Shown piece after piece: positions 16,069-61,631 of a DNA stretch of 64,000 nt. The notes beneath the pieces were generated by a model. It ran no database searches. It was given only the letters and a program-made list of their open reading frames with translations, and was not told the DNA's origin. The DNA comes from Acidobacteriota bacterium (GTDB lineage: Bacteria > Acidobacteriota > UBA6911 > RPQK01 > CBDAPI01). Location of the stretch: positions 129,842-193,841 of the forward strand of contig CBDBGQ010000053.1 of the NCBI GenBank assembly GCA_965205345.1, in the 5' to 3' direction. Each line of letters opens with the position of its first letter. Position 1 is the first letter of the stretch. The position numbers and the translations under genes are program-made.

Positions 16069-16070
16069 AG

Positions 16071-31238: not shown

Positions 31239-31251
31239 AATCCCCTCAATT

Positions 31252-44263: not shown

Positions 44264-45243
44264 TTACGGTGTATCCTGTAGCTTCTTCATGTTTTCGACG
44301 AGTGTGTGCCAGCCGAAAACGAGCGACAACCGGAAGCCGTCCATGCGCAGGTCGGTGGGCTCGCTGTCGTTCACCGTCGCGATGTAGCCTCCTGTGAGCT
44401 GCAGGTTGTCGTTGATGTGGTAGCCGAGCGTAATCCCAAGCCCGACCTTGTCCAGCTTTTCGCCCTGCATACCGTGCAGAGTGGCCTGGCCGCCGGTCAT
44501 CCAGGTCACGTCGAACGAGCCCCAAAGGTGCTCGTGAAAATCGCGCGTGAGATGACTCTCGAGCTGAAACATGGGCTTGGTAGAGAGCGTGGTGCCCACG
44601 AAGTCATTGTTGTCGCTGAAGAACCAGACTGCGGGAAGAAACTCCAGGGTGGTGCGCCGGCCTGGGACCCAGGGTCCGAGCTGCCACACGATTGGGAACC
44701 CGACGCGGCCGTACACCGGTTCTGGCCAAGGTTTAGCGGCTGGCCATTGTCATACTCGCCGATAGGAACGGCCAGGTCGAGGATCACATCCAGGGAGAAA
44801 CCCGGTTCGTAGCGCGCCAGATCGGGGATATTCTTGATCGCTTTGGGGCCGATCAGGTTGAGATCGAACTCGAATAAAGGGTCCCCGAAGCCACTCGCGT
44901 CCTGGCTGAACGTTCGGCCGTTAAGCGTCACCTCACCTGAGAGCCGGCCCATGGGAGCGAGCACAGCCACCATAGCGGCCTGATCGAAGAGCGTAAAGGT
45001 ATGGGCATAACCGACTATGGCCACGTTGGCTTCGAAGCTCGCATCCGCCAGCACGGTGGAGCCCGGGTCGAGAGGGTTTGCGTTTCCGTTCAAGAACATG
45101 CCAATGACGGGCACTCCGTTGCCGCCGCTCAGACTCTTCCAGTAAAAGCGCGGCGGCACCTGGCCGGAGGCGGGCGTCAGGCCCACGGCCACGAAGGAGA
45201 TCGCCAGCGCCAGAATCAATGGCAGATTTCGCAGGTGAATCAT
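44264..45243 (-). pseudogene. Outer-membrane transport beta-barrel (MetA-pathway-of-phenol-degradation-like family), frameshifted
   Basis: The N-terminal two-thirds (signal peptide MIHLRNLPLILALAISFVAVG...) sits in one frame up to about 44760. The C-terminal third (YGRVGFPIVWQLGPW...LVFGWH) continues in another frame (ORF 44264-44716). Confidence 0.5.
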
Positions 45244-46875
45244 CTCTTTGGCTCCTTCACCATCTCAGGGGGAGGGATGAACTGTCGCTTGTTGAGGAGG
45301 GGCGGATATCCCGGTTCCTCCGGGAACCGCTGCGGCATGTTGTCGTCCAGGGTCTCGAACATGGAACGGCTGGGCAGAATCACGTTATTCCTAGTGACGT
45401 AGTCTTCCCAGCGCTCCACCAGCGCGACTACTTTTTCGGGCTGCCTGGAGGCCAGGTCCTGACGCTCCCCGGGGTCGGAGGTCAAGTCGAAGAGCTCCCA
45501 GTCGCCAGTGCCGTAGGGCTTCCACTGCCAGCGAAGCTTCCAGTTCCCCTGGCGCACTGCTCGGTTCCCGAACAGCTCCCAGGCCAGATAGTCCTCGTCA
45601 GTGCGGACGGAATGGATCCCCCCGGCGAGCATCGGGATCCAGGACTTGCCCAACAGAGGTGGCAGCTGCCGTCCTTCTCGCGTCTCGGGATACTCGACTC
45701 CTGCGACCTCCAGCAGTGTGGGCATGATGTCGGCTACATGCATGATGGAGTGATGGATGCTCCCACTGGAACGTCCAACTGCCGGGCCGCTCACGATCAG
45801 GGCGTTCCGAATCCCACCCTCGGCGAGCCAAGCTTTGTACTGGCTGAAAGGCGTCATCGATACCTGAGCCCACATGGGACCGTAGCCGACGTATGAACCC
45901 GGTTCACCCCAGGCATTCGGATGTGTCTTGGCCCACTTGATGGCCGCGAAGAGAGAGTTCAGCGTGCCTGGCGTGCCCGCGATCATCTTGAAGAGGTCCG
46001 TGCCCTCGGCGCCGTTGTCACCGAAAACGATGAAAATGGTGTTTTCGTACTCGCCGATCTCCTTCAGGTAGTCGACGAGGCGCCCGACGTGGTAGTCCAT
46101 GTTCTCTACCATTCCCGCGTAAAGCTCCATCTTCATCCCGAGTTGCGCTCGAGGTGCCGGCGCGAGAAGCGTGGAGTCAGAAACGAACCACAGGCGGTCG
46201 GCGAGCTTTGTGCCCTTGGTAAAGAGACCGAGCTCAACCTGCCGCTGCAGCCGCTGGCGGCGCACCGCATCCCAGCCCTTGTCATACTCCCTGACGTGGC
46301 GTCGGCGCCACTCCTTCGGCAAGTGGTAGGGGTCGTGCGGCGCCTGGTGCGCGAGGTAAGCGAAGAAAGGCTTGCCGTCGGCCCGGTCCGCCTCAATGAA
46401 CTCGATCATCTTGTCTGTGTAGGTCTTGGTCGCGTAATAGCCTTTGGGGAGCTCGCTGAGATAGAGACCGTCCTCGGTAAAGACCGATTGAGGCGAGCGG
46501 GCGGTCAGGTTCGTCATGTCCCAGTAGCTTCCGCCACCGTCGAGGAGGCTGAAGTCACGCTCGAAGCCCCGGGCCCGCGGAATCTTATCGGGCGCTTTGC
46601 CCATGTGCCACTTGCCGGTCATGTAGGTGTGGTAGCCGGCTTCCTTGAGAAGCTGCGGCAAGGTTGCGATGCTGTCATTCAGGTAGCCTTCGTAGCCCGG
46701 AACCCCCATCTGGTTCGGGGCCGTCCACTCGTCCATGTTGCCGAGGCCGTTGAGGTGCGTATCGACACCCGAGAGCAGCATCGAACGGGTGGGTGAACAG
46801 CTTGCGTGAGTGTAAAACTGGGTAAAGCGCACGCCCTGCTGAGCCAGGGAATCGATGTGTGGAGTCTGTATTTCG
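45240..46875 (-). pseudogene. Arylsulfatase (sulfatase family), main body, separated from its N-terminus by an IS256 insertion
   Basis: Has the C-x-P-x-R sulfatase signature SCSPTRSMLLSG and the GKWHMG block. The frame reads back to ...PEIQTPHIDSLAQQGVRF immediately after the IS, with no start codon or signal peptide on this side. Confidence 0.8.
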
Positions 46876-48210
46876 GGTTAAGCAACCGTTTTTCTGTAAT
46901 TTCCTCTAGGGCCTGTAGGGAAGAATTGCTCCACTTGTTTTTTCCAGCCGGCCAGGTTCAGGTATTGCCGGCCGGTTAACCACTCCTCGTGTATCTCTGC
47001 AAGCACAGCCGAGATGAGCCGCAGCGCCGATGCTTCGTGGGGAAAGATTCCCACCACCCGGGTTCGTCTCCGGATCTCCCGGTGCAGTCTCTCCAGTCCG
47101 TTGATGGTTCGGATCCTTCGCCACCAGCTCCTCGGAAAATCAAACACTGTCAGCCCTTCATCCAGGTTGTCTTCCAGCCAGCTCACGAACTCCGGTGCAA
47201 TCTTTTCGAACTTCTTGACGACTTTACCCTTGAGCTCCTCGGCATCCTCTCGAGACGGGGCATCGAAAATGTCCCGCATGGCCTGGGCGATGCGGGGCTT
47301 GTCCTCTTTGCGGCGAGCATATTGTTGGGCGTTTTTGCTCAGGTGAAACTGACAACGGTTCCAGGGCACCGACGGATAAACTGCCCGCCTGGCCGCCTTC
47401 AGTCCTTCGTGATCGTCACTGACCAACAGCTCGACCTCTCTCAGTCCACGCTTGTGCAGATCTCCCAGAAACCCTCGCCAATGCACCTCCGCTTCGCTGA
47501 TCTTGGCGCTCAGACCCAACACCTCTCGCGTCCCGAAACGATTGACTCCTATGGCTTTCAGGATGGCCACGTCCTGCACCCTGCCGCCTCTTCGAACCTT
47601 CTCGTAGTGGGCAGATACACGATCGGATACTCTCCCAGCTCCCGGCTTCGAAACTCTTCCAGCTCTTCGTCCAGCATCCCGGCCACTCTCGAGACCTGGG
47701 TGGCCGAGATCTCCAACCCACACAGCTGCTCCGTGATCTCGAGTGACTTTCCTCGTCGAGACGCCCATCACATACATCTCGGCAATGGCCAGCTTCAGGG
47801 CCTTCTCCGAACGGCAACCCCTCTCCAGCGACTTGGGATAAAACCTCAACCCACGCACCTGTGGAATCTCCAAGTGCAGCTCTCCCACTCGAGTCTGAAT
47901 CCGCTTGCCTTTGAATCCGTTTCGATAGCCTCGCCGACTGGCTGTTCTCTCGTACGCTTCCGCTCCCAGAAACTCGCTTCTTTCCAACTGCATCGCCACG
48001 TTGAACAACTTCTCCAGGATTCCTCGAAAGGCTTCTGTTCCTTCCTCGATCAACTCCGCCAGGATCTCCCGTGGTACTCTCTTTTCCAGATCTGGGTTCA
48101 TTTGATTCTCCTTGCCAGATTCTCGTTTCTGTTTTTGGAGAATCCTGTCCCAGACCTCTGTCTTTCCGACCCAAGGCCTGACCAGAAATTACAGAAAAAA
48201 AGTTACACTA
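46876..48210 (-). mobile_element. IS256-family insertion sequence (~1.33 kb) with ~26-bp imperfect terminal inverted repeats and a ~10-bp target-site duplication
   Basis: TIRs are aaccgtttttctgtaatttcc (left) and agaaattacagaaaaaaagtt (right, reverse complement). The direct repeat ctgtatttcg appears at 46866-46875 and 48211-48220. Confidence 0.8.
46878..48101 (-). pseudogene. IS256-family (mutator-type) transposase, carrying two compensating frameshifts
   Basis: N- and C-terminal thirds match IS256 transposases (AEMYVMGVSTRKV..., YEKVRRGGRVQDVAILKAIGVN...). About 45 residues in the middle are out of frame. The correct reading (ITEQLCGLEISATQVSRVAGMLDEELEEFRSRELGEYPIVYL) lies in another frame between about 47610 and 47745. 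Confidence 0.7.
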
Positions 48211-48390
48211 CTGTATTTCGCTCCCGAACGAACCCAGGTCTGAGTAGCCCATGTCGTCAGCCAGGATGATCACGATGTTGGGTCGGTGGGCGGCCGACAA
48301 GGCCGAGATCGATATGGCCAACACCAGAACCAGGGGGCCAAAGAACCATTGATCGCTTCGTGCCATTACCACTCCTTTACGATAGGTCAT
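48208..48390 (-). pseudogene. N-terminal fragment of the IS-disrupted arylsulfatase (signal peptide plus PNIVIILADDMGYSDLGSFGSEIQ)
   Basis: It ends ...GSEIQ then a stop created at the IS junction. The sulfatase body on the other side of the IS resumes with PEIQTPH..., and the shared EIQ is encoded by the target-site duplication. Confidence 0.8.
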
Positions 48391-48518
48391 TGCAGTGGAC
48401 CAACTGTCTTTGAGGCAAAGTCCAGGTCTGTTGCGCCCCTGGTTGGAGAATCATCGGCCTCAACGTGTTTCTTGTGTCCAGTGATGGGAACTCCCGCATC
48501 CTAAGGGTTAGCTACCCT

Positions 48519-48893
48519 CTAATTCGATTGAGAGTGGCTGCTGGAGTCGGAATTCCAGTACCGACTGGGCCGGGACTCGAATCGCACCCTGACTGCCGGA
48601 GCCGCCTCCCAGCACCGAGCTGATGTCCGTTCCCGTTGAGGAAGAGAGACTCTGCAGGACCTCCGGGCATCCACCGTCACCTCGTTGGTGATCACCGGCG
48701 CCAGCCTGTAATTCAGGCTGACTTCCGTAAGGGAGAGAACCAACTCGACGCCGGAACGAGACTTGGAAACTCTTCCATACACCTGGCCTCCGCGAGTGGG
48801 AACGATCCGACCGTTCACCAGCAGATCGGAGTCCAGGTAGGCCGTGAAGGGATCTCCGGCCTGTTGCCGAGACGTCGAGAGTTCATTGGCCAT
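48519..48893 (-). CDS. Hypothetical protein (beta-rich), start overlaps the stop of the upstream gene; C-terminus possibly frameshifted
   Basis: Reads MANELSTSRQQAGDPFTAYLDSDLLVNGRIVPTRGGQVYGRVSKSRSGVELVLSLTEVSLNYRLAPVITNEVTVDA, which is protein-like. The last ~45 residues look like off-frame junk, and an alternative frame gives a plausible ending ...VLQSLSSSTGTDISSVLGGGSGSQGAIRVPAQSVLEFRLQQPLSIELEGS. Confidence 0.3.
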   Translation of the reverse strand: MANELSTSRQQAGDPFTAYLDSDLLVNGRIVPTRGGQVYGRVSKSRSGVELVLSLTEVSLNYRLAPVITNEVTVDARRSCRVSLPQRERTSARCWEAAPAVRVRFESRPSRYWNSDSSSHSQSN

Positions 48894-50211
48894 GCGGACC
48901 CTGAGCACGGTTCCGGCGGTCACCGTCAACGTAGATGTCGCGGGCGGAGCCGCCGCCGGTAGAATAAAAGGAGGAGCCCGATGGTGCAGCGGTTGGACTC
49001 GCCGCAGCGGAAGCAAGCATCTGAGCTGCTTGCGGGGGCTTGTCAACGACCAGATACACCTCCTTCTTCCCATCGAAGTAAGGCAGGTAAAACACTCCGT
49101 TGGCCATGAAGAAGGTCACCTCCTCCACGGGCAGAGGATCAAAGTCGGCAGGGAGCGAATCCAGTACGGTCAGGCCGGCGGGGCGATCCACAACCACGTA
49201 GGACATCTTTCCCCCCTGCTGGGCCTTCCGATAGAAGGTGTTGTTGTAATAGTAGTAACGTGCATTGGCAATGGTGATGGTGGCCTCACCGGCAGGCAAT
49301 GAATCCACCTGGGCTCCAGAGGGAGCCTGGACGACTTCATACTTGACCTCACCTTGCGAGGAGGTCTGCTTGTAGTAGGTGCTCTTGGAAACGTAGTAAG
49401 CGGTACCGGCCACCAGCAGCGCAATCGCTCCCACCGGAACATCATCATAGTAAACGCCGTAGGGGGGGTAGGCAGGGTGGTAAACCCAGGCGCCGCGGTA
49501 CATGTAGCGCCCGTAATAGAGACCGCCGTGTGTGTAGTAGGGCCGTCCATGGTAATGGACCGGGCGATAATGGTTGGGCAGCGTGGTCACCATGCCGCCC
49601 CCGTAAGGCCCGCGCGCGACGCCATAGTTCCCATAGTGCTTGGTGTCGACGGTTCCGTAGGCTACGGGCCGTCCCCAGTAGTCGCGGCCGAATGCCACGC
49701 CCTCGACCTCGACTCCTCGGCCCCAGCTGGTTTCCGTTTTTCCCTCGTATTCCAAGTAGCCGCCTTTGTTCTCCAGTTTTTGCTCTCGCTTGATTTCGTC
49801 ACCATAACGGTTCGTCGTGGTCGCCTCCCGCTCGATTTTCTCGCCATACTCGAGCTCTCCTTCGACAGTACGTGAGTGTCCGCTGTCGGTCTCGACTTCG
49901 CGCTCCCACTTAACCCCGTCGTCCCCTCGTTCCACCGTACTTGACCCTTCAGCACTACGACCGTAGCGTCCCTCGGCGGACGTCTCCCGGTTTGTCTTAT
50001 TTCCGTCCACGCTGGTGTTTGTATCCAGGGTCCCGCGCCGTGTCTGAGTGCGGTGGCTTCCCTCGGTGGAGGTCTTACCGGCATAACGTACTGAACCACG
50101 AGATGCTGACCCGCGAGCCTGTCGCTGAGCCGCCAGATCCGGAATGGAAAACGCCAGCATCATGAAGATCAGTGGGATTGTCAGACTCTGGAACGGCTTG
50201 CTTCGTGTCAT
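48883..50211 (-). CDS. Secreted Tyr/Gly-rich protein with two C-terminal internal repeats
   Basis: Has signal peptide MTRSKPFQSLTIPLIFMMLAFSIPDLAAQ, then a charged region, then a Y/G/P-rich region. Ends with two related units, VVQAPSGAQVDSLPAGEATITIANARYYYYNNTFY and VVVDRPAGLTVLDSLPADFDPLPVEEVTFFMANGVFYLPY. Confidence 0.5.
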   Translation of the reverse strand: MTRSKPFQSLTIPLIFMMLAFSIPDLAAQRQARGSASRGSVRYAGKTSTEGSHRTQTRRGTLDTNTSVDGNKTNRETSAEGRYGRSAEGSSTVERGDDGVKWEREVETDSGHSRTVEGELEYGEKIEREATTTNRYGDEIKREQKLENKGGYLEYEGKTETSWGRGVEVEGVAFGRDYWGRPVAYGTVDTKHYGNYGVARGPYGGGMVTTLPNHYRPVHYHGRPYYTHGGLYYGRYMYRGAWVYHPAYPPYGVYYDDVPVGAIALLVAGTAYYVSKSTYYKQTSSQGEVKYEVVQAPSGAQVDSLPAGEATITIANARYYYYNNTFYRKAQQGGKMSYVVVDRPAGLTVLDSLPADFDPLPVEEVTFFMANGVFYLPYFDGKKEVYLVVDKPPQAAQMLASAAASPTAAPSGSSFYSTGGGSARDIYVDGDRRNRAQGPHGQ

Positions 50212-50264
50212 GTCCTTCTCCTGCTTCTCAAAGCTCCAAGAAAGCAACTGCAACTGTCTCTAAT

Positions 50265-51050
50265 TTAGGGTTTTGTTTTCTCAATCATAGGGAGGAGATC
50301 GGTCTGCTTGGCAGAGGTTGTGTTTTTGAACTGAAACACCTCGTCGGGAAGACTCATCGCCTTCCACTCGGTGATCACTGCCTGGTACTGCGGATGGCCA
50401 TCCTCCAGCTTGTAGGTGATGACGAGCTTTCTGGGAACGGGTTTTGCACCCGCGTCGATCCAGATCTGCCAGTCGACAGCCTCGTGAGTGAAAACCAGAT
50501 GGTGACATTTCCGGCTGCCCACGTAGTGCAAGCCGGCATAGGTGCCGGTTCGGATACCAGGCTGAACAGCCTTGAAGACGTCGCTGTAAAGCAGGTCAGC
50601 CACCGGCAAAACCACATCATAGGTCTCGGCCAGATGATCCAGCGTTGCATCAATGGTCGCGGGAATTCCTTCCAGGACGCCATACACGTTGTGAACCTTG
50701 TCAAACAGCGTGATCTTACTGCCGTCATACCAGACACTGCTCCTGTCCGTGTCCCCCTGGACATCACCTGCCAGCCGATCAGGACGGCGAACGCCGAACT
50801 TTCGAACATTGGAGAGCTGAACTCGAAGACCTCCGTCGATGAACTCGTCGACCGTCTCCTCCACGCTCATCGCAAACTCTTGGACACTGCCCAGATAATC
50901 ACTCATCGAACGAAGAGCCTCTCGTGCCTGTGCATCAATTCGGGCAATGGTCTCCTCTTTTTCTTCCGCCTGAGCGAAGACGGAGAGCGGAAGCAGGAAG
51001 AGGAAAAAAAGACCACTCAACGCAACGAAAAGGTGCCTGGATCGGTTCAT
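50265..51050 (-). CDS. DUF2092 (LolA-like fold) periplasmic protein
   Basis: Has signal peptide MNRSRHLFVALSGLFFLFLLPLSVFAQ. Overall composition and length match the DUF2092/LolA-like family (moderate certainty). Confidence 0.5.
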   Translation of the reverse strand: MNRSRHLFVALSGLFFLFLLPLSVFAQAEEKEETIARIDAQAREALRSMSDYLGSVQEFAMSVEETVDEFIDGGLRVQLSNVRKFGVRRPDRLAGDVQGDTDRSSVWYDGSKITLFDKVHNVYGVLEGIPATIDATLDHLAETYDVVLPVADLLYSDVFKAVQPGIRTGTYAGLHYVGSRKCHHLVFTHEAVDWQIWIDAGAKPVPRKLVITYKLEDGHPQYQAVITEWKAMSLPDEVFQFKNTTSAKQTDLLPMIEKTKP

Positions 51051-51128
51051 CTGGACGGCTCGCTCACTTTCTGGTGTGTTCGTAGGACTCGACTTTGAGA
51101 GTAAGCTTCTCCTTCTTTCCATCCACGG

Positions 51129-52418
51129 TCATGAGGCCCAGGTAATTGGTCCCGTCGGGCAGGCATTGTTGTAAAAGTTGATCGAGAGGTCGACTGCGTC
51201 GTCGGGGCCGTCCAGGTAAGAGGAAGCCGTGACTTTGCGTATCGCCTGGACGGTCTTGTCGATGGAGATGGTCATCGTATCCCCGGGCTTGTAAAGATCT
51301 GCAATCGTCAGATTGACAATCCCTTCTCCCGGACCCATGGTCATGGAACCCTTTCCGGCCTTGAATTGCTCCTGCAGGCGAGACGGATCCGGCTTGGAGT
51401 AGTGCCCGACCAGGCTCATCATTCGCTCCGCGTAGTCTTTCAGTTCGTCCACTTTCTGGGCGATCTTCTTCTTGATCCTTCTTCCTCGCCGGCCGCCGCC
51501 GCCGCCCTTCTTTTGATCTTCTCCGGGCGGGCCGATATCCGTCTTCTGCTGCTTTCCATCCGGTCCTATGGCGATCTGGTAGACCATCGTTTTCTTGACA
51601 TCGCCGCCCTTCAGAACCTCAACCTTCTGTTTCCACGTGTAGTGGGCGAGTTTCTTGTTGTTTTCGGCTGAAGCCTGCTTGAAAGAGGCCAGCTGGGCCT
51701 GCGCCTGCTGCTGCTTCGCCGCCTGCTCAGGCGAGGCCTGGGCCGGTTTTGCTGCTGCGGCAGTGGGCAGCGTCACCGAGTTCTCGAGCTTGAAACTGAA
51801 CTTCTGCTCGGCACCGAACTCAACCTCTTTGCCCCGGGTCAGAAGGGTCGCACCGACACCGACCGCCACCCCGATCACAGCTCCTTTGGCCGCCCCGTCT
51901 CCTCCGTCGGCGATGGCGCCAATGCCGGCTCCAGCTCCGACGGCTGCTGCAATGCGCTTGCCATCACGGCCCTTCGACCCCTCCGATTCAAAGGTCAGAG
52001 TGTTGGTTTGAATGGCCACGCTTTGTTGACCGGCCTTGAAGGAGCTCAGGGTCAATACCATTTTTCCTTTCCCTTTGACCCTTCCCGACTTTTTCGCCTC
52101 GACGACTGTGCCGGTGACATCAGCGCCCCGCTTCAGCACGGCGACGCCGCTTACGACGACGTCCTTATCGAGAACGGTCCGGAAACTTTCTCCCGTTTTG
52201 TTTTTCCCGCTTGTAAGACCCTGCACCAGGCGAACTTGAAATTCAGTACCGGCAGGGAGGGCGCTCGGATTTGCCGGGGTGGCTTTGGGGGCAGCGCGAA
52301 CTGGCGGGGCGGGTTTAGATGCCGGCTGGGCGGAGGCCCGGGCATTAGAAAAGTGATCGAAGTTCTCGATCTTGAGTTCCAGGCCCTGGCTGGGATAACT
52401 CACGATCAGGCGCGCCAC
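51129..52418 (-). CDS. Glycine-zipper domain protein (GTG start) with Ala/Gln-rich linker and C-terminal globular domain
   Basis: Has the AAVGAGAGIGAIADGGDGAAKGAVIGVAVGVGA glycine-zipper segment, a KPAQASPEQAAKQQQAQAQ linker, and a basic GGGGGRRGRRIKKK patch. Confidence 0.5.
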   Translation of the reverse strand: MARLIVSYPSQGLELKIENFDHFSNARASAQPASKPAPPVRAAPKATPANPSALPAGTEFQVRLVQGLTSGKNKTGESFRTVLDKDVVVSGVAVLKRGADVTGTVVEAKKSGRVKGKGKMVLTLSSFKAGQQSVAIQTNTLTFESEGSKGRDGKRIAAAVGAGAGIGAIADGGDGAAKGAVIGVAVGVGATLLTRGKEVEFGAEQKFSFKLENSVTLPTAAAAKPAQASPEQAAKQQQAQAQLASFKQASAENNKKLAHYTWKQKVEVLKGGDVKKTMVYQIAIGPDGKQQKTDIGPPGEDQKKGGGGGRRGRRIKKKIAQKVDELKDYAERMMSLVGHYSKPDPSRLQEQFKAGKGSMTMGPGEGIVNLTIADLYKPGDTMTISIDKTVQAIRKVTASSYLDGPDDAVDLSINFYNNACPTGPITWAS

Positions 52419-52449
52419 GTACGTAGGCCCGTTATTGGGAAGGGACCGG

Positions 52450-53019
52450 TTAGTCGGCCTTGATCTGGAGGGGTGCCGCCCGGTAGCTTGTCTCGACTTC
52501 GGCCTTCTCGAGCCTCTGCCCGCGCCCGGTCAGTTCCACGGAGTCTCCCGACTGAAGGAAGTTCTCGCCCTCAATTCGAATGGTCGCGGAATTGCGTCCT
52601 TCCCAGATCTCGGATCGCTGCAGGAAAACAGCAAAGGCCTTGGGATCCGGCTGCGTATAGGCAAAGCCTCAATCTTCCAGATCTGCAACCATTCCCCGCA
52701 TCTCCGGTGTCAGGTCACCACTGCCCCCCACGGTGGTCCTCTGCAGCTTGCCGTCGATGTCGTAGCGAACCTTGACGAGACGCGTGACAGGCTCCCCGCT
52801 AACAAGAACTTCCGTACGTTTCGTCCAGCTGTAGGCACGCAGCATTTGTTGGTTCTGCGACATCTTCTGGGCAATCTGCTGATTCTTGGACTGAGCTCGG
52901 AGCTGAGTAGCTGGAACCAGCATCAGGCCAAGAGCGACTGTCATGACTCCTCGAACCCATCCCCACTGGCTTGCTGAGTATGAATCCCGCGCAACATTGT
53001 TCTCTCTTGACAATGTCAT
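52450..53019 (-). CDS. Secreted hypothetical protein whose reading frame contains an in-frame TGA at 52666-52668
   Basis: Has a signal-like segment MTVALGLMLVPATQLRAQS. The protein-like sequence runs ...TPEMRGMVADLED-TGA-GFAYTQPDPKAFAVFLQRSEIWEGRNSATIRIEGENFLQSGDSVELTGRGQRLEKAEVETSYRAAPLQIKAD, ending at TAA (52450-52452). There is no start codon after the TGA. Confidence 0.4.
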
Positions 53020-53254
53020 GGAACGATCCTCCGTTAATATTCTTGTGCTGCGTTACGAACCTGCCGACGTTCTCACGCCGTGCCGCCCGGTTCCCGAGGG
53101 TATCAGGAGTTGCCATCGATTCCAAGGGCGAGGTGGGGCCGATTCGCCTTGCTCCAGAGCAGCATACAACTCACCCAGAACCGGGAGAATCTAGGGGCCG
53201 GTATCCCACAACCTAGTGCAGCTCGCCAAAAGTTTGGTAGTGGGTCAGTTTGAA

Positions 53255-54148
53255 TTAGGTAGTATTCTTTTTGTACGGTCCACGGGTCAAATATCCCGCG
53301 TGCATCTCTTCTCGCTCCTTCTGTTCTAGAAGTCCAACGATCTCCTCTGTTTCCCACACATGATCCGAGACACCAACTTCCATTGCGGGGGTCACTCTCA
53401 GACTACTATGGACCCTAGCGAAGTTGTAGTACATGAAGTGAAGCGCTACGGCATGGCATAGATTCTCTACCTTTTTGCTGAAAGCATTGGTCAAGCGGGT
53501 AAACCGCCTCATGCTCATTCGCATCGTGAGGTTCTGTCTCTCCACATAGCTGGTTGAGATGAAGTCCGGATTCGGGTTTCCAGTGACTGTCTCCCGTTTG
53601 GTTCTGTTGCACTTTGCTGGGCTGTAACGGCTCTCTTTCTCTACCGGGGGCGCACCGTACACCTTGATGAGCATGGAATAGTCCACGTCTCCACCGAAAG
53701 CTCCATCTACGGCTTCCAGGTAGACCTTGTGGCCGTCAGTGGTTAGCTGGATGCGATTGGCCATCCTATCTGCCAGATCGCGCATGAACAGGGAGGCGGT
53801 ATCTCCGTCCCTGTTTCCAACCATCCAAGTTGGGACGATCTTGGTATCAGCGCAGATCGCCGTCCATGTCCAGACATCACCATATCCGAACTCCCCTTGT
53901 CTTTCCTCTGGAACGTTGGAAGCCTTCGAGTAGCAGAACGACCAAATCTCGTCACACTCGATCCGCTTACATGATAGATCCCGTAGGGTTTCATGCTGAT
54001 ACTCAGCGCAGACCTCGCCAATCTCCGCCAGGAGCTTCACGACCGTGTTTTTAGATACGCCGGTCATCCTGACGGTGGATCGGATGGAGTTACCCTCAAC
54101 CAGGGCGGAAACGATCTGAACCCTCTTTTTGGTGGAAAGCCTGTTCAT
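53255..54148 (-). CDS. IS1/IS1595-family DDE transposase
   Basis: Has an N-terminal HTH (STKKRVQIVSALVEGNSIRSTVRMTGVSKNTV). Blocks CDEIWSFCYSKASN, TDGHKVYLEAV and YVERQNLTMRMSMRRFTRLTNAFSKKVENLCHAVALHFMYYNFARVH...TPAM parallel the IS1 InsB / IS1595 catalytic region. Confidence 0.65.
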   Translation of the reverse strand: MNRLSTKKRVQIVSALVEGNSIRSTVRMTGVSKNTVVKLLAEIGEVCAEYQHETLRDLSCKRIECDEIWSFCYSKASNVPEERQGEFGYGDVWTWTAICADTKIVPTWMVGNRDGDTASLFMRDLADRMANRIQLTTDGHKVYLEAVDGAFGGDVDYSMLIKVYGAPPVEKESRYSPAKCNRTKRETVTGNPNPDFISTSYVERQNLTMRMSMRRFTRLTNAFSKKVENLCHAVALHFMYYNFARVHSSLRVTPAMEVGVSDHVWETEEIVGLLEQKEREEMHAGYLTRGPYKKNTT

Positions 54149-54236
54149 AGGAATATTGTGCCTGATTTAGCTTACACAGTCAAGCATTCTTATGACTTTG
54201 CTTTTTTGCGCAGACTGATGTGTTAGCCTCCTAGGC

Positions 54237-55382
54237 ATGGAAGAATGCCACATGGACTGTAAAACTCCGGGCCAATTGATCAGGGCGCTTTTGGAGGAAT
54301 ACGGCTGGACACAGAGGGTCTTGGCAATAGTGCTGGATGTCGATGAAACTGGAATAAACAAGATCGTATCGGACAAGCGGCCCATTAAAGCCGAAATGGC
54401 TATCTTGCTAGGTGAGCTTTTCGACACTCCCGCCGAGAGATTCCTAGAACTTCAGAAACTCTACGATCTTGCGAAAGCCAGGTTTTCCGCACGCCCAGAC
54501 GCAGGCCGGACAAATCGGGCGCATCTATTTGGTGGCCTACCAGTCACGGAGATGATTAAGCGGAGGTGGATAGAAGCCAAGGATATTAAGGACGTATCCG
54601 CCGTGGAGTCTTCTCTGGCGAGATTTTTCGGGGTTTCTTCGCCCCAGGAAATAGAGATTCTTCCGCACGCTGCCAAGAAAACCGTTGTTTCGTGTCCGGC
54701 CAGCCCCAGCCAGTTGGCATGGATCTACCGGGTGAAGCAAATCGCCAGTGAAATGCTTGTCCCTCCATACTCAACAGTGGCTCTAAAGAAGGCCCTCCAT
54801 AGGTTGAGTGCCTTGTTGTCGGCACCCGAAGAAGCCCGCATGGTACCAAGAATACTTGCCGAGAGCGGAATCCGTTTTGTCATTGTCGAATCTATTTCCT
54901 CGGCCAAGATAGATGGTGTTTGTTTTTGGTTAGACGACCGTTCTCCTATTGTGGGAATGTCACTTCGATTTGATCGTATCGACAACTTCTGGTTCGTCCT
55001 TAGGCATGAATTAGAACATGTCTACAGAAAGCATGGACGCATAGCCGTGGCCCTAGATGCGGAGCTGGAAGGCGATCGCGCTGGAACCGGCTCCCACATT
55101 CCTGAGCAAGAACGAATCTCCAACATGGCAGCCGCTGAATTTTGCGTGCCCTCAGAGAGTATGGACAGCTTCATCGCCCGAAAAGCGCCGTTTTTCGCGC
55201 AGCGGGATCTGCTTGGATTCGCCACAACATTGGGCGTTCATCCAGGTCTAGTGGCTGGCCAACTACAGCATCGGACGGGCCGTTATGATCTATTCCGAAA
55301 TCATTTGTCTAAGATAAAGTTTGCCGTCGCTCCCAGTGCTATGGTCGATGGTTGGGGCGACGTTGCCCCTGTGGAGATGTGA
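54237..55382 (+). CDS. XRE-family HTH domain fused to ImmA/IrrE-family zinc metallopeptidase (COG2856-like)
   Basis: N-terminal Cro/C1 HTH (GQLIRALLEEYGWTQRVLAIVLDVDETGINKIVS). C-terminal HEXXH motif (RHELEHV) with downstream Glu, typical of ImmA/IrrE. Confidence 0.75.
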   Translation: MEECHMDCKTPGQLIRALLEEYGWTQRVLAIVLDVDETGINKIVSDKRPIKAEMAILLGELFDTPAERFLELQKLYDLAKARFSARPDAGRTNRAHLFGGLPVTEMIKRRWIEAKDIKDVSAVESSLARFFGVSSPQEIEILPHAAKKTVVSCPASPSQLAWIYRVKQIASEMLVPPYSTVALKKALHRLSALLSAPEEARMVPRILAESGIRFVIVESISSAKIDGVCFWLDDRSPIVGMSLRFDRIDNFWFVLRHELEHVYRKHGRIAVALDAELEGDRAGTGSHIPEQERISNMAAAEFCVPSESMDSFIARKAPFFAQRDLLGFATTLGVHPGLVAGQLQHRTGRYDLFRNHLSKIKFAVAPSAMVDGWGDVAPVEM

Positions 55383-55399
55383 TAGGAGAAAAAGGAACA

Positions 55400-55873
55400 A
55401 TGGGAAAAACTAAAGAAATGCAGTTGATCATCAAGCAGTACAAGGACATGACCGGAGAGACACAAGTGGATATACATAAGGTGGCGAAGTTCGCTGCTGA
55501 TATGGGATGGCCCTTGTCGCAACCAGAGGACCCTCTTGATCGGCTTGCGCAGAGTTTTACCAGAGCCGCTCGTAAGGAGATCAAAAAAGACAAGGCCACA
55601 AACAGGACGTATCGCGTTAATCATGCAATCCCTGATCCAACCGGGCAGTATTCGCTTTGGATCGACATCGATGAAGCTCCAAGAAAGCACATGCACAAGT
55701 CTCTGGTTAATCGACGGGAGCAGATGGTAGGCGATGGACTGCAACTGACGCTTGATGCGGATCACTGGAACCGAATCAATCCAAACGAGGAACCGATTCA
55801 GCTACCCATGGACTTTACTCAAGACGTTGAATGGCGAAAGAATGCACCGCAAAGGGATCGAGAGGCGAGCTAG
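55400..55873 (+). CDS. Hypothetical protein (157 aa) immediately downstream of the HTH-ImmA gene, inside the IS
   Basis: Has a good RBS (aggagaaaaaggaacaATG). I recognise no family and it has no TM. The ORF-track start at 55352 overlaps the ImmA gene, so the internal Met is preferred. Confidence 0.45.
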   Translation: MGKTKEMQLIIKQYKDMTGETQVDIHKVAKFAADMGWPLSQPEDPLDRLAQSFTRAARKEIKKDKATNRTYRVNHAIPDPTGQYSLWIDIDEAPRKHMHKSLVNRREQMVGDGLQLTLDADHWNRINPNEEPIQLPMDFTQDVEWRKNAPQRDREAS

Positions 55874-56154
55874 TCAGAATTAGACTTCTTTTTCCAGCGT
55901 GCTTCTGCAGCAGTTTTGGCAATCTCAGAGCGTTGCTCTGGTGTCAGGCTTTGGGCCCGTGCTTTCCCTCCTTTTTGCCCTCCACCGCTTCCCAGGATGG
56001 CCCCACCTAGTTTCAGTAATTCCTCATCGGATAACCTCTGCCGGAGCTTGGCCAACTCCGCATGTATCCGCTCGTCAGAAGTAGCCTCTCCTGTGGTCTC
56101 TCTCAGGATTCGAGCGGCCACTTCGTTAGGATCGCTATCTTGTCGTCTGGGCAT
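55870..56154 (-). CDS. Small hypothetical protein (94 aa) with basic Lys/Ala-rich C-terminal tail
   Basis: C-terminus is GGQKGGKARAQSLTPEQRSEIAKTAAEARWKKK, suggestive of a nucleic-acid-binding tail. It is the first gene inside the right IR, convergent with the 157-aa gene. Confidence 0.4.
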   Translation of the reverse strand: MPRRQDSDPNEVAARILRETTGEATSDERIHAELAKLRQRLSDEELLKLGGAILGSGGGQKGGKARAQSLTPEQRSEIAKTAAEARWKKKSNSD

Positions 56155-56250
56155 GATTGAATTATGTCAGATGGGACCCAGGGCGTGAAGGGCTTAGGAT
56201 TCAAACTGACCCACTACCAAAAGTTTTGACCCAGGCCAGCACCATCTACC

Positions 56251-57703
56251 CTAGCAGCCCGTGGTGAAAGTCGAGGATAAGGGGTCACACAGCGACACTA
56301 GACTGACCCCATGGCAATGGGGAAAAAGAAACGTCGACAGCAAGAAGACCTGTGGGTCGCCACCAGTGAGCTGCCCCGCACCGCCGGCCATCCCTTCTAC
56401 GAAAGACTGAATGGCCTTTTCAACGAACACGGCTTTGACGACTTCGTGGAGGGACTGTGTGCGAAGTTCTATGCAGACAAGATGGGGCGACCGAGCCTGG
56501 CTCCGGGAGTGTACTTTCGGCTGCTGCTGGTGGGGTATTTCGAAGGGATCGGATCGGAACGAGGAATAGCCTGGAGAGCAGCTGATTCTCTGGCACTGCG
56601 AGAGTTTCTGGGATTGAAACTGAGCGAGTCGCCGTCTGATCACTCCACGATCTCCCGAACCCGACGACTGATCGATGTGGCTACCCACGAAGCAGTCTTT
56701 GACTGGGTACTGAAGCGGATCGGGGCGAGCGGCCTGCTGCGGGGCAAGACGATCGGCATCGATGCCACTACGCTGGAAGCGAATGCAGCGCTGCGCAGCA
56801 TCGTGCGCCGGGACAGCGAGCAGGGGTATGAAGAGTTTTTGATGGAGCTGGCGAAAGCCTCCGGGATTGAGACGCCGCGACGGGAAGATCTGGCCAAACT
56901 GGACCGCAAGCGCACGGGCAAAGGATCGAACCGGGTTTGGAAGCACCCGCATGATGCGGATGCGCGGATTACCAGAATGAAGGACGGGCGGACGCACCTG
57001 GCGCACAAGGCGGAGCATGCAGTGGATCTGGAGACCGGAGCGATTGTCTCGGTGACGGTACAGGGAGCCGATCAAGGGGACACGCAGACCATGGTGAAGA
57101 CCCTGACGGAAGCGGCCGAGAAGGTGGAACAAGCGCTGCCGGAGGGACGAGGCATCGAAGAGGTGGTGGCCGACAAGGGGTATCACAGCACGCAGCGGAT
57201 GGTGGACCTGGATGCGGTGGGACTGCGCAGCTATGTGAGCGAACCGAGGCGAGGGAAGCGACGCTGGCGAGGAGACCGGCAGGGGCAGGAAGCGGTGTAT
57301 GCGAATCGGCGGCGCATCCGGGGAGAGCGAGGGCAGCGGCTGCTGCGGCAACGAGGAGAGCAGCTGGAGCGACCCTGTGCGCATCTGTACGGGAGCGGAG
57401 GGATGAGACGGCTGCATGTACGGGGACATGAGAATGTGTTGAAGCGACTGCTGATCCAGGTGAGCGCCTTCAATCTGGGGATGCTGATGCGTCAGAGCCT
57501 GGGTGTGGGAACGCCGCGGGGTCTGCAGGGGCGGATTTGCGCCCTGATGCTACTGATTTTGTCGCTGTTCAAGCGTCTTAAGGGCCTGTTCGGACTGATT
57601 CCGGCTGCTTGGCCCGAAAAACCCAACTCAGCGACCCCTTCGCTGCTTCCACCCGTGGGTACCACCTGAGCTCAGAAAACGTACTTCCACCACGGGCTGC
57701 TAG
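56251..57703 (+). mobile_element. IS5/IS1182-family insertion sequence flanked by CTAG on both sides
   Basis: TIRs are ctag-cagcccgtggtgaaagt (56251-56271) and acttccaccacgggctg-ctag (57683-57703). Confidence 0.7.
56311..57669 (+). CDS. IS5/IS1182-family DDE transposase
   Basis: Has an InsH-like N-terminal domain (FYADKMGRPSLAPGVYFRLLLVGYFEGIGSERGIAWRAADSLALREFLG). The C-terminal DDE region includes VADKGYHS. Confidence 0.75.
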   Translation: MAMGKKKRRQQEDLWVATSELPRTAGHPFYERLNGLFNEHGFDDFVEGLCAKFYADKMGRPSLAPGVYFRLLLVGYFEGIGSERGIAWRAADSLALREFLGLKLSESPSDHSTISRTRRLIDVATHEAVFDWVLKRIGASGLLRGKTIGIDATTLEANAALRSIVRRDSEQGYEEFLMELAKASGIETPRREDLAKLDRKRTGKGSNRVWKHPHDADARITRMKDGRTHLAHKAEHAVDLETGAIVSVTVQGADQGDTQTMVKTLTEAAEKVEQALPEGRGIEEVVADKGYHSTQRMVDLDAVGLRSYVSEPRRGKRRWRGDRQGQEAVYANRRRIRGERGQRLLRQRGEQLERPCAHLYGSGGMRRLHVRGHENVLKRLLIQVSAFNLGMLMRQSLGVGTPRGLQGRICALMLLILSLFKRLKGLFGLIPAAWPEKPNSATPSLLPPVGTT

Positions 57704-57864
57704 TGTACTGTCCGGGAAGTTCGCGTCGTTAATTCGGGATGGATTTTCGTCGTCAGTGAGGCGCGCGACGCAGCAATGCCGGGAGTATTTCGAGGTAGCG
57801 CAACAAAGCTGTCGGCGAAAAGACGCCCGAAGTAGCGGCGTGAACTTTCCGGACAGTGCACTAG
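57700..57864. mobile_element. MITE copy B (~165 bp), flanked by CTAG, abutting the IS5/IS1182 right end
   Basis: Reads ctag-tgtactgtccgggaagttcgcg ... cgtgaactttccggacagtgca-ctag. It is the reverse complement of copy A at about 90 percent identity and shares its left CTAG with the IS terminal CTAG. Confidence 0.7.
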
Positions 57865-57961
57865 CGACTCGTTTTGCCAAGATCGGTTGCAGAACTAGAA
57901 AGACCAGCCTACGGATGTGGTGATTCCAAAATCGTTGCTCTCCACGTCAGACCCGGGGGGA

Positions 57962-58993
57962 TCACTGTCGAAATTGTCGAACAGAGAAAAGCTCACAAAG
58001 AAGTCCTTGAAAACCTCGTAGCGGATACGGCTCTCCAGTGTCCACGCGTACGCGGCCAGGGGAACTCAAACTGGGGAAAATGCTCACTACGGTGGATATG
58101 TCCATTTCCGGGTCTTCGAAGCGGAACATCTCGATGTCCCAGGAAGCAAGGGCCTCAATGTTGTTCTGACCCCCCTGTCCCGAAAACCTTTCCCGCGTAA
58201 AAACAAGCCCACCCCCGGCAGTGACGAGCGTCCGATTCGATTGCACGACCGCGCGCCCGATCAGGCCTCCGAGAGTAGTGCGAAAGTCCAAGTCGAGTTC
58301 GTCGTTGGTGGTCCAGTTGGCCAGGCCGGTTGTGAACCACTTCTTGCGCAGGAAGTGTTGGCTCTGGAACCCGACCACGTGGCGCGAGGTGCTCTCCAGA
58401 CCTTCCTGACGGCTGAACAGCGAGCTGACACTGACTCCGGTCTTGCGCTCGCGAGTTCGATGGCTGGCTTCTGCACCAATCGTCAGTTGACCCACCCGGT
58501 TGGCGCGCGTAAAGGATGATCCCAGATCCACATAACCATCGAGGCGCTGCCAGAATCCGTCCTCAATTGGAGTTACCTTCACAATCGATGGCTGGTCCAG
58601 GGAGATCTGCTGACCCTGAGCGACGACCTCGATCTTTTCTTCCTGAGATGAGTCCAGGGAACTAAAAAACCTCTTTCCTTCCTGGGTTTCCACTTCAAAC
58701 ACGTGCTGGCTGGAGACCGACGCAATCTCATTCCACTCGACGTACACCGTGCCCATGTAGCTGGTGCTCACCTCCAGCTTACCTCGTTCCAGCTTCTTGA
58801 TTTCGCAGGTGAGCCGATCCCCGTTCTCCATGATGAGAACATCGGTTTTGTCACGTGCCCAAAGAGAGGTCAGCAACAGCGTGCTCACGATTGCCAGAAC
58901 CGGTAGCTTGGGTCGGTAGAACCTTATCAGTGCCCGTTTGGGAGCCATTCGATCGTTCACTTCAATCCTTCCATTGCTTTCGTTCCCCCCCAT
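57962..58993 (-). CDS. DUF481 family outer-membrane protein
   Basis: Has signal/TM LPVLAIVSTLLLTSLWA, then the DUF481 N-terminal block DVLIMENGDRLTCEIKKLERGKLEVSTSYMGTVYVEWNEIASV. The C-terminal ~30 residues may be off-frame. Confidence 0.55.
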   Translation of the reverse strand: MGGNESNGRIEVNDRMAPKRALIRFYRPKLPVLAIVSTLLLTSLWARDKTDVLIMENGDRLTCEIKKLERGKLEVSTSYMGTVYVEWNEIASVSSQHVFEVETQEGKRFFSSLDSSQEEKIEVVAQGQQISLDQPSIVKVTPIEDGFWQRLDGYVDLGSSFTRANRVGQLTIGAEASHRTRERKTGVSVSSLFSRQEGLESTSRHVVGFQSQHFLRKKWFTTGLANWTTNDELDLDFRTTLGGLIGRAVVQSNRTLVTAGGGLVFTRERFSGQGGQNNIEALASWDIEMFRFEDPEMDISTVVSIFPSLSSPGRVRVDTGEPYPLRGFQGLLCELFSVRQFRQ

Positions 58994-59008
58994 CTAGAAA
59001 AAACAAAG

Positions 59009-59401
59009 TCAGCGAGAGAGTCGGGACAAACTCACGAGCAGAGCCGCGCTCAGAATCATGTGAAGCACCACGGCAGGCCACAGCAGCGGAGCCCGGGCCC
59101 CTCGGAGAAGACCAGCATGGGCCAGGACGAGAGCTGCCACCAGGTTGTAGACCAGCAATCCGCGGGCCACACCGATACCGGTGGAACTGCAGGGAGAGAA
59201 GCGCGCAAACCAGCAGGCTGTCGCCAGGGCCAGAAGGGCCCCTGCCGCCACTCTGCCGATCACCAGACCTGCGGAGTGGAGTGATTGGCCCAGAAGCATG
59301 CCCACAGCCGCTGACGGGTAGATCAGCAGTGCCATTGCCGTCGCGCCCTCCAGCAGGGCACCCGCCAACAACAATCGTTGCAAGAGAACTTCCGCCTTCA
59401 T
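59009..59401 (-). CDS. Small integral membrane protein (about 4 TM helices)
   Basis: Strongly hydrophobic 130-aa product. The competing overlapping ORF (58962-59447) is low-complexity P/G/R/S-rich and looks off-frame. Confidence 0.4.
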   Translation of the reverse strand: MKAEVLLQRLLLAGALLEGATAMALLIYPSAAVGMLLGQSLHSAGLVIGRVAAGALLALATACWFARFSPCSSTGIGVARGLLVYNLVAALVLAHAGLLRGARAPLLWPAVVLHMILSAALLVSLSRLSR

Positions 59402-59446
59402 GTGCCTGGTTCCGGGGAGTATCCGTCGTGGGTGGGCTGTTCTCCA

Positions 59447-60348
59447 CTAGAAACGTATCGGGAACCCGAACACGACTCCTGGACTCACGATATTGTATCG
59501 ATAGAAACTGGCACCCGAGCCCTCCTCATAATCGATACTCAGCGCCTTGAAAAGGATCTGGACTCCCATGTGACGGGTGAGGCGGAACTCGGCTCCGGCC
59601 TCGACGTTCCAGGTGAAGTCCGAGCCGGCGCCAAAGCCCCCGATGTCTCCCCTGGCGAGAAAGGAGGCCCGAGGAGAGATCTGGGTCGTGAAGCGGAGTC
59701 CGACAATCGGGTCGACCCAGTCCGGTGTGAACTCTCTCTCTGCGCCAGAGCCGATGCCTCCTGTTCTGGCGGCTCGTAAGTTCTGTCGAACATAGCGCAC
59801 CCCGCCCAGGACATCGACTCCAGTCTTAGACGATCCCAGCCGGTAGGCCAGAGCGGATTCAAAGGTCAGCATGTCAATGTCGACGTCGAGGCGGCCTCCG
59901 AGTGGAAGGTCGCCCTGGTCGCCAAGTGCCATGAAGTTGACATCGAAGAGGCCCGCCCAGGGTCCTTTGCGCACTTCAAATCGGCTGGCCACCGCAAACT
60001 CCAGATTGTCCAGAAGTGTCTTGGCACTGGTGTTGACATCACTCTCCAGGCCTCCCAGAGCCACATCTCCATCCATTCGGGCCAGGAAGAGGTAGGGAGT
60101 GATGACGACTTCCCACTTATCCAAACTCGCGCCGGGGGCTGAAGGCTGGAAGGAGCCACGAACGGTCCCGACTCTGGAGGTTCCGAACTTCGCTTCGCTT
60201 CGGGCTCCACAGCTCTCTCGGACTCGTTTCCCGTGGCGAAAGCGGTTGCCATCAGGAGGAGAAGCACAACGAGAAGACAGGCTGAGAGCCGAAGCCCTGG
60301 ACAATTCCACACCGGTTTTCTGTCAGACAGAAGGCTAATCAATCGCAT
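59447..60348 (-). pseudogene. Outer-membrane beta-barrel protein (OmpW/porin-like, C-terminal ...GFPIRF), with the signal peptide in a different frame from the mature part
   Basis: Frame A (60348 downwards) encodes MRLISLLSDRKPVWNCPGLRLSACLLVVLLLLMATAFATG. Frame B (60121 to 59447) encodes the beta-barrel with alternating hydrophobic strands and a terminal Phe. The shift lies between about 60121 and 60220. Confidence 0.5.
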
Positions 60349-61338: not shown

Positions 61339-61631
61339 CGCGACGTCTTCTCTGCCGTTTTCCGTCCGCCGCGATGGCGCGCCGCCCGGACCTGACGGAT
61401 TTCCTCATCGACTTCCGAAACAGGTCGCTCCGGAATGCGCAGAATGACTTCATCAAATACTCGTAGCATCCTCAATCTCTCTCTCTCGCCGAGCCGACCA
61501 ATTCTCTCACTGTAGTCGTGAATCGCCTCCCGGACAACCTGGCTCTTGGGCCTGGAGAGTCGTTCCGCAGCCTGGCGTAGCTTCGTCACCGTCGCCCGGT
61601 CGAGAGTGAAGGTCACTTTGATTTTTGCCAT
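61335..61631 (-). CDS. Ribbon-helix-helix (CopG/VapB-type) antitoxin
   Basis: N-terminal beta-strand KIKVTFTLDRATVTKLRQAAERL, typical of RHH. Paired with the PIN gene. Confidence 0.7.
   Translation of the reverse strand: MAKIKVTFTLDRATVTKLRQAAERLSRPKSQVVREAIHDYSERIGRLGERERLRMLRVFDEVILRIPERPVSEVDEEIRQVRAARHRGGRKTAEKTSR

Follow-up and report, generated by a model that had tools for sequence, protein, structure and literature searches.

Probable ongoing decay of an envelope and sulfatase gene cassette in an insertion sequence-rich, strain-variable zone of an Acidobacteriota contig

Expansion of insertion sequences (ISs) together with pseudogene accumulation under relaxed selection is well known in Shigella, Yersinia pestis, Burkholderia mallei, Mycobacterium leprae, and Sodalis. 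Here we describe what is probably the same kind of process in an Acidobacteriota bacterium, in a 64,000-nucleotide stretch of contig CBDBGQ010000053.1 (positions 129,842 to 193,841 of the forward strand; assembly GCA_965205345.1), hereafter called the window. From comparison with related assemblies, we consider it probable that a dispensable envelope/sulfatase cassette is undergoing genuine and ongoing decay in an IS-rich, strain-variable zone at 44.2 to 64 kb of the window. As in the bacteria named above, multiple IS families lie in or near genes, deletions adjoin IS elements, old IS copies are degraded, frameshift and nonsense mutations fall in nonessential surface and catabolic genes, and different strains carry their own lesions in the same genes. 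Unlike in those bacteria, the process is known here from a 20-kb zone of one contig of a metagenome-assembled genome (MAG), and the flanking 44 kb is intact in this strain.

The mobile elements of this zone can be compared with standard IS families. IS256 elements carry a PF00872 transposase of ~400 amino acids (aa), imperfect inverted repeats, and a target duplication of 8 to 9 bp, and IS1 elements carry an IS1-type DDE transposase between inverted ends of ~20 to 30 nt, with an 8- to 10-bp duplication and a length of ~0.8 kb. IS5/IS1182-type elements combine DUF772 and DDE_Tnp_1 in their transposase and have short inverted ends. The target duplications expected for the three families found here are 8 to 10 bp for IS256, ~10 bp for IS1, and 4 bp (CTAG) for IS5. 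The IS256-family and IS5-like elements of the window agree with their families in transposase domains, inverted ends, and duplicated targets, and the larger IS1-like element agrees with IS1 in its ends and its duplication, with a transposase match barely above the cutoff. The window elements differ from these families in that the IS256 copy is dead, one IS1-like element is 2,981 bp long and carries passenger genes, and the other IS1-like element is an 865-bp deleted derivative. A marine example of IS expansion together with pseudogenes is reported for Ca. Endozoicomonas cretensis (PMC6007542). The nearest GTDB representatives of the window are labeled Acidobacteriota, Thermoanaerobaculia, and Ca. 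Marinacidobacterales, and a literature search found nothing directly relevant on pseudogenization in sponge or marine Acidobacteriota. The locus probably adds one more case to a familiar pattern and will not surprise specialists.

Broken genes of the accessory zone and their intact counterparts

About 30 long open reading frames (ORFs) tile positions 1 to 44,083 of the window, and 28 of the 30 core ORFs matched Pfam families, mostly over near-complete domains (two small ORFs, of 135 and 207 aa, had no Pfam match). Both results agree with a first-pass annotation, made from the letters of the window, that had seen no obviously broken genes in the first 44 kb. Beyond 44.1 kb, we found short ORFs, overlaps in differing frames, and transposase genes. 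Nine non-IS genes were counted at 44.2 to 62.4 kb, where the only intact units are three, namely, a DUF2092 gene, a gene for a 130-aa membrane protein, and a ribbon-helix-helix (RHH)/PIN toxin-antitoxin pair. Seven pseudogenes, split over two or three frames, truncated, or interrupted, were recognized among the non-IS genes, and five IS elements and one miniature inverted-repeat transposable element (MITE) lie among the decayed genes. Features described below are on the minus strand unless marked otherwise.

When species-representative genomes were scanned with the sulfatase of this zone, none proved identical to the window; the closest was locus L021 (Acidobacteriota MAG OZ252114.1), with ~92% DNA identity across the sulfatase and the adjoining MetA-like gene, and more distant matches were labeled Thermoanaerobaculia and Ca. 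Marinacidobacterales. Two adjacent window ORFs, fused conceptually and used as the query of a homologue search, led to five further loci (L081 to L085). Three of them, L081, L084, and L085, are from independent ENA assemblies (the ENA analyses differ, being ERZ25068966 for L081 and ERZ25067065 for L084) and are 99.2 to 99.8% identical to the window over 5.8 to 19.8 kb. The other two, L082 and L083, are outgroups with 74 to 90% protein identity in which the whole envelope cassette is intact, comprising a 302-aa barrel, a 643/650-aa protein, DUF2092 (262 aa), and DUF6515 (563/567 aa). The lesions were polarized by the near-identical assemblies and by these two outgroups, and genes of L081, L082, and L083 were the intact references for the seven pseudogenes.

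Two genes of the cassette carry lesions older than the strains. A DUF6515 gene with a C-terminal glycine-zipper domain, encoding 563 to 567 aa in relatives, is a pseudogene at 48508 to 50211. A frameshift in its low-complexity linker (48956 to 48976) is common to L081 and L084, and L085 is identical there. The window has two private changes besides, an in-frame +ATT at 49691 to 49693 and, downstream of the linker, a +CT at 48656 to 48657 (context GTC[CT]GCA), and in tblastn the L083 protein aligns to the window in three segments, in frames -2/-3/-2. For the ORF at 48519 to 48893, the first-pass annotation had proposed a probable C-terminal frameshift; the frameshift is there (the +CT), but the ORF is no standalone gene, being the C-terminal domain of the DUF6515 protein, which is also found in DUF6515 proteins of 576 to 605 aa.

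The second gene, at 51064 to 53019, is a pseudogene of an envelope protein of 643 to 650 aa in relatives (the 645-aa glycine-zipper protein), with a signal peptide, an unnamed domain that occurs twice, and a glycine zipper. The ORF at 52435 to 53019, previously treated as a locus of its own, is a fragment of this larger gene, which in relatives unites it with the following 429-aa ORF (51129 to 52418). The conceptual fusion matches proteins of 643 to 650 aa over 91 to 99% of its own length at 80 to 89% identity, and by tblastn the window gene falls in three frames. A +TG within 51157 to 51170 is exactly common to L081, and two lesions occur in the window only, a +A at 52451 (context ACT[A]ACC) and a CGA-to-TGA change at 52669 to 52671, where orthologues have CGA or CGG (Arg). 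The in-frame TGA reported earlier is real, but its position had been given as 52666 to 52668, 3 nt off. The Ala/Gln-rich linker of this gene is variable in length among strains: L081 has a 78-bp (26-aa) tandem duplication at its positions 10103 to 10180 (window 51684 to 51771), and P0006 has two Gln fewer.

Since the DUF6515 linker frameshift and the +TG are shared by independent assemblies, they are inherited. At least these two frameshifts predate the split of the strains and inactivate two cassette genes, and each strain gained private lesions afterwards. The inherited set consists of the two frameshifts, both absent from L082 and L083, and the truncation of a second sulfatase by an IS1-like element. 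The point lesions private to the window are a CpG C>T nonsense mutation (CGA>TGA), events of -7, +2, +3, and -4 bp, and four single-base indels, and the private structural lesions are three IS insertions with target duplications and a 299-bp IS-adjacent deletion.

All seven disruptions listed in the first-pass annotation are present in the sequence. The linker frameshift of DUF6515, the +A and the +TG in the 645-aa gene, a frameshift in a DUF481 gene, the 299-bp deletion, and two further IS elements (IS1-like and IS5-like) are additions to that list. Besides the two disruptions discussed above, its readings of a frameshifted outer membrane transporter (44264 to 45243), an IS-split sulfatase, a doubly frameshifted IS256 transposase, a barrel whose signal peptide is out of frame (59447 to 60348), and a second sulfatase cut short by an IS1-like element all hold against relatives or other copies. 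The transporter is a MetA-like (PF13557) outer membrane channel, split at 44264 to 45243 into 245-aa and 150-aa ORFs that match consecutive halves of PF13557 (9 to 118 and 129 to 233) in different frames. A 1-bp deletion, TGG>TG at 44714/44715, turns CGG TGG TAC into CGGTGTAC; its context, GGT[G]GTA, has no homopolymer run, and the site is intact in four relatives, L021, L081 (a 326-aa copy), L084, and L085.

The adjoining arylsulfatase (sulfatase 1) is split after residue ~52. Its 3' part (~residues 50 to 594), with a CSPTR formylglycine motif and a PF00884 match that starts at profile position 37, lies at 45240 to 46875, and its 5' part (residues 1 to 52), with a signal peptide and a DDMGY metal site, lies at 48211 to 48366, where aa 1 to 52 of the L081 sulfatase align at 98% identity (tblastn). 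Between them is a 1,335-bp IS256-family element (46876 to 48210; transposase ORF 46878 to 48101) with imperfect 31-nt inverted repeats at its ends and a duplicated target, CTGTATTTCG, of 8 to 10 bp. The PF00872 match of the transposase (1.6e-84) falls in two stretches, and the identical flank is 10 bp long, 8 to 9 bp of which may be the duplication. The insertion is missing from L021, L081, L084, and L085, in all of which sulfatase 1 is uninterrupted.

The transposase of this element is broken twice. Read against other copies (P0339 and P0323; ...STRKVTEITEQLCG...IVYLDAHYEKVRR), it has a +C near 47740 (within 47731 to 47747) and a 4-bp deletion, GACG, near 47612 (within 47603 to 47620), which together put ~40 codons out of frame and remove the Asp of a conserved L-D-A-H-Y-E-K-V-R stretch. 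The inserted copy is thus itself dead. In a representative library of 1.8 billion proteins, all matches more than 85% identical to it are fragments of 119 to 321 aa that break off at differing points, and the closest full-length relative has only 50% identity. Because the near-identical relatives are all fragments, the whole IS256 lineage looks degraded, as if it were decaying generally.

Outside the close relatives, sulfatase 1 is 73 to 75% identical at the protein level to genes in MAGs of many labeled phyla (loci L001 to L080), the labels including Proteobacteria, Desulfobacterota, Nitrospirota, Verrucomicrobiota, and Chloroflexota. This spread may reflect either unusually high conservation or wide horizontal transfer. 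DNA similarity to L001 to L003 and to L021 continues from the sulfatase into the MetA-like gene, and the two genes are adjacent there too.

The lesions at 58 to 63 kb are of several kinds. A DUF481 outer membrane protein gene (57895 to 58948) is a pseudogene in which PF04338 is covered only from 2 to 135 of 210; a window-private +A at 58039 (context GGAC[A]CTGG) leaves the last 46 residues in another frame, and the L083 protein aligns to the window with aa 1 to 301 in frame -1 and aa 302 to 347 in frame -2 (tblastn). The L081 gene has other lesions, a 28-bp insertion and an extra C. We considered whether the 28-bp difference was a deletion in the window, and alignment to a DUF481 reference placed it as an insertion in L081. 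A G-run difference at 58991 probably lies upstream of the true DUF481 start and would hence be harmless. In the 302-aa outer membrane beta-barrel pseudogene (59447 to 60348), the signal peptide is separated from the barrel by a window-private deletion of 7 bp (GCCTTCC) at 60140/60141, one unit of an imperfect direct repeat, GCCTTCA/GCCTTCC; the two parts align in frames -2/-1 (tblastn), and intact 302-aa genes are present in L081, L082, and L083.

Sulfatase 2 is reduced to a C-terminal remnant of 148 aa (61952 to 62416) with SGSH_C and Sulfatase_C matches only. It abuts an internally deleted IS1-like element of 865 bp (62414 to 63278) with 45-nt inverted ends, which is common to L081 and 99.2% identical to L081 2627 to 3483. 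The 248-aa ORF of this element lacks the central catalytic region and has no Pfam match. The L081 locus retains a 254-aa fragment of sulfatase 2, and 299 bp (L081 3484 to 3782), directly at the IS end, are lost in the window.

Decay is also evident in the sister strains and other relatives. Private lesions of L081 are a +G, the 78-bp duplication, the 28-bp insertion, and a CAG>TAG change near the end of the sulfatase. In L084, everything upstream of DUF2092 is replaced by IS elements, and in L085 (15x coverage) ~10.8 kb is deleted, so that five genes and the start of DUF6515 are gone, and the MetA-like gene has a frameshift of its own. The sulfatase of L021 is frameshifted near its C terminus (L021 11280 to 11350), and that of L083 is split by a DDE_3 IS (L083 6189 to 8928). 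In L021, the 3' end of the MetA-like gene is replaced, next to a VapBC-like pair. Furthermore, a Ser/Thr kinase/PD40 gene at 37300 to 40098 (plus strand), intact in the window with 932 aa, is split in L081 by A6>A7 (~20664 to 20681) and in L084 by an IS4-like insertion (15148 to 19609) and has products of 515, 773, and 906 aa in three further assemblies. Because this gene is broken in sister assemblies, decay in the population is not limited to 44 to 62 kb; the earlier statement that the lesions are confined to that interval is true of this strain, but not of its sisters, in several of which the kinase gene at 37.3 to 40.1 kb is broken.

Real decay, consensus error, and other explanations

Clusters of frameshifts in long-read assemblies raise the question of consensus quality. 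The first-pass annotation had offered two causes, genuine gene decay in an IS-rich island and locally poor consensus, and had held that they cannot be told apart from sequence alone. This was too pessimistic, since sister assemblies and outgroups separate them; the inherited lesions, the lesion types, and the parallel decay in relatives point to the first cause. According to the second, the IS insertions would be real, and most point lesions would be long-read assembly errors in a low-depth or strain-mixed stretch, which we regard as unlikely. The window does resemble long-read frameshift artifacts, as detected by IDEEL-type tests (PMC13087279), in having ORFs shorter than their full-length homologues, and some related assemblies show homopolymer differences. 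Its lesions differ from such artifacts in that they avoid homopolymers, include substitutions and multibase events, are partly shared, and are confined to ~20% of the segment. Comparison with related genomes, which had been proposed as a check, gave two frameshifts shared with independent assemblies, the remaining lesions private, and the outgroups intact. The homopolymer context, likewise proposed, was also informative: no window-private lesion lies within a run of at least 3. Most of these private lesions, namely, the C>T nonsense mutation, the -7, +2, +3, and -4 bp events, and the IS insertions, are also of kinds that errors in long-read consensus do not yield. At the three homopolymers that differ in length from L081 (A6/7, C6/7, and G6/7), the length found in the window is in frame or harmless. 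Nor are the point lesions spread along the contig, as artifacts might be: the non-IS accessory DNA has 8 of them in 12.7 kb, and the 44-kb core has 0 (p of ~6e-6 under uniformity). The error-free core contains 123 homopolymers of at least 5, all in frame and causing no frameshift. At ~50 frame-breaking indels per 100 kb, the density in the accessory DNA exceeds the published rate about tenfold; that rate, obtained with long-read metagenome assemblers from a mock community, is ~4 indels per 100 kb (PMC13087279). Besides, the same genes have gross, real lesions in the sisters, such as IS replacement and the ~10.8-kb deletion.

Several observations weigh against genuine decay, nevertheless, and in favor of a contribution from consensus error. 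Each window-private lesion is found on one contig only, without a second contig to match it. The ratio of indels to substitutions is high: when four strains were aligned over 4.55 kb, 6 private indels stood against 23 private substitutions. The names of the related contigs are in the metaMDBG/Flye style, the coverage stated for them is low (7x, 15x, and 19x), and a locally low depth of the strain-variable region could also apply to the assembly of the window. Error-like private 1-bp indels in homopolymers occur in other assemblies (C7>C8 and G3>G4 in L084; A6>A7 and C6>C7 in L081), so these data sets are likely to contain consensus errors. Finally, ~80% of single-base strain differences are nonsynonymous, in the core too (window 36414 to 63272 versus L081 and L084), and the flanking phosphoesterase has 1 synonymous versus 6 to 7 nonsynonymous differences. 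This excess might stem from assembly noise or from strains having diverged very recently under weak purifying selection. Counting in the style of dN/dS did not separate accessory from core DNA, both being ~80% nonsynonymous, and supports neither side. One to four of the single-base lesions of the window might be consensus errors, and the overall picture would stand without them.

Two further explanations accept the lesions and read them differently. Repeated, selected inactivation of surface and envelope proteins in coexisting strains, for example to escape from phages that use them as receptors or from host recognition, would fit the observation that the targets are mostly outer membrane or periplasmic proteins, that the cassette has been struck independently in every strain by differing mechanisms, and that the MetA-like gene has three different private frameshifts in 3 of 4 strains versus only ~3 substitutions. 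However, two of the three MetA indels, like other private indels, may be errors or drift, the numbers are small, and the ancestral lesions in two cassette genes suffice for relaxed selection on the rest. Because nonsynonymous changes dominate the flanking core genes too, there is no local selection signal, and we hold adaptive loss to be improbable as well. It is far harder to credit that the genes are still expressed, with the TGA read as selenocysteine and the frameshifts programmed or phase variable. A short T-run does contain one of the frameshifts, and an imperfect repeat of two units takes part in the 7-bp event, but neither a long simple-sequence repeat nor a slippery heptamer lies at the lesion sites, there are two or three lesions in several of the genes, and the sequence is plainly intact in close strains. 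Selenocysteine was rejected because the codon of the orthologues at the TGA is one for Arg (CGA/CGG), neither Cys nor selenocysteine being found there, and because Rfam gave no match in the window; programmed frameshifting and phase variation were rejected together with it.

Genuine decay, the probable explanation, can then be pictured as follows. Two small functional modules are probably free from selection now and in the course of destruction by ordinary mutational processes, one consisting of the arylsulfatase and the MetA-like outer membrane channel and the other, the envelope cassette, of the 302-aa barrel, DUF481, the 645-aa glycine-zipper protein, DUF2092, and DUF6515. We infer dispensability and the order of events: the first hits would have been fixed and their partners would then have drifted (domino decay), the neighboring sulfatase/channel pair drifting along with the cassette. 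High IS activity would accelerate the decay by insertions and adjacent deletions, and slippage and deamination would supply the point lesions.

Mobile elements, intact neighbors, and core genes

The larger IS1-like element (2,981 bp; 53236 to 56216) is present in the window only, being absent from L081. Its inverted ends measure 20 to 28 nt, the duplicated target is CCAAAAGTTT, and its transposase (53255 to 54148, minus strand) matches DDE_Tnp_IS1 weakly, at 25.1 bits against a cutoff of 24.1; the ends and the duplication fit IS1. Its G+C content falls to ~51%. Two passenger genes are on the plus strand, an HTH_3/Peptidase_M78 gene (54237 to 55382) that matches PADLOC PD-Lambda-2_B at 5.9e-39 and a 173-aa ORF of no family (55352 to 55873). 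The passengers may represent a transposon-borne fragment of an antiphage system; other PD-Lambda-2 components were not found beside the PD-Lambda-2_B-like gene.

A second element found in the window only, and absent from the corresponding L081 site, is IS5/IS1182-like (1,445 bp; 56255 to 57699, plus strand). Its transposase (56311 to 57669) is intact, with 452 aa and both DUF772 (PF05598) and DDE_Tnp_1 (PF01609) domains; the inverted ends of 17 to 25 nt read CAGCCCGTGGTG(A/G)AAGT, and CTAG is duplicated. The identical protein sequence is encoded on 35 contigs, and its cluster at 90% identity has 1044 members, from which the element appears to be currently active and widespread in related assemblies.

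The IS5-like element is inserted exactly at the terminal CTAG of a MITE-like repeat of 164 to 167 bp (57700 to 57865, unstranded), which is bounded by CTAG and has inverted ends of ~22 nt (TAGTGYACTGTCCGGRAAGTTC). Other copies lie at 11784 to 11947 in the window, at 2380 to 2546 and 8373 to 8536 in L081, and at 253 to 311 in L021, and one copy sits in core intergenic DNA. The repeat has no Rfam match, and zero Rfam families matched anywhere in the window. An IS4-like (DDE_Tnp_1_4) transposase gene runs off the window end with its 3' part inside (63407 to 64000; PF13701, 298 to 431 of 435), and this stretch has no match anywhere in the L081 locus.

The intact units are scattered among the pseudogenes. 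DUF2092, a LolA-like periplasmic protein of 261 aa (50265 to 51050), covers PF09865 positions 1 to 210 of 212 and aligns full-length to L082, and its exact product occurs on 2 contigs. The 130-aa membrane protein gene (59009 to 59401) matches its L081 counterpart from end to end at 99% identity. The toxin-antitoxin pair (60958 to 61631), composed of an RHH antitoxin (61335 to 61631) and a PIN toxin (60958 to 61338; PF01850, 1 to 117 of 120), is likewise called in L081 and L085.

The core genes include dehydrogenases, TPR, FG-GAP/ASPIC, and DUF1501 with PSCyt/PSD families, as well as an N-methylglutamate-type gene set, the Ser/Thr kinase with PD40 repeats, and a 1,077-aa phosphoesterase. The gene set at 26183 to 32718 (minus strand) is like that of the N-methylglutamate pathway of methylamine use, with GATase, GXGXG, and Glu_synthase subunits, a Gln-synthetase-like protein, and a DAO oxidoreductase, and cluster mates of its Glu_synthase subunit are named methylamine-glutamate N-methyltransferase subunit C. 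A codon usage frame scan, too noisy for calling frameshifts, gave a single anomaly in the core, at 27.6 to 28.0 kb; a frameshift there was rejected, as the site is an ordinary 135-aa gene.

Consequences for annotation and for the population

Seven ORF groups of this MAG warrant annotation as pseudogenes. Left as they are, they would enter the gene count as ~15 small hypothetical genes and two sulfatases and would inflate the sulfatase and transport capacity inferred for the organism. Frameshifts that cluster in a long-read MAG are not necessarily an assembly fault, and comparison with sister assemblies can sort lesions into inherited ones, private ones, and those that are probably errors, with no recourse to the reads. 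For the biology of this Acidobacteriota population, the locus shows a clearly high IS load and activity and strain-level gene loss, and it implies that a conserved, uncharacterized envelope cluster (the barrel, the 645-aa glycine-zipper protein, DUF2092, and DUF6515) may be dispensable in the lineage. If adaptive loss were true after all, the locus would offer a natural marker for an arms race within a population of uncultured marine Acidobacteriota.

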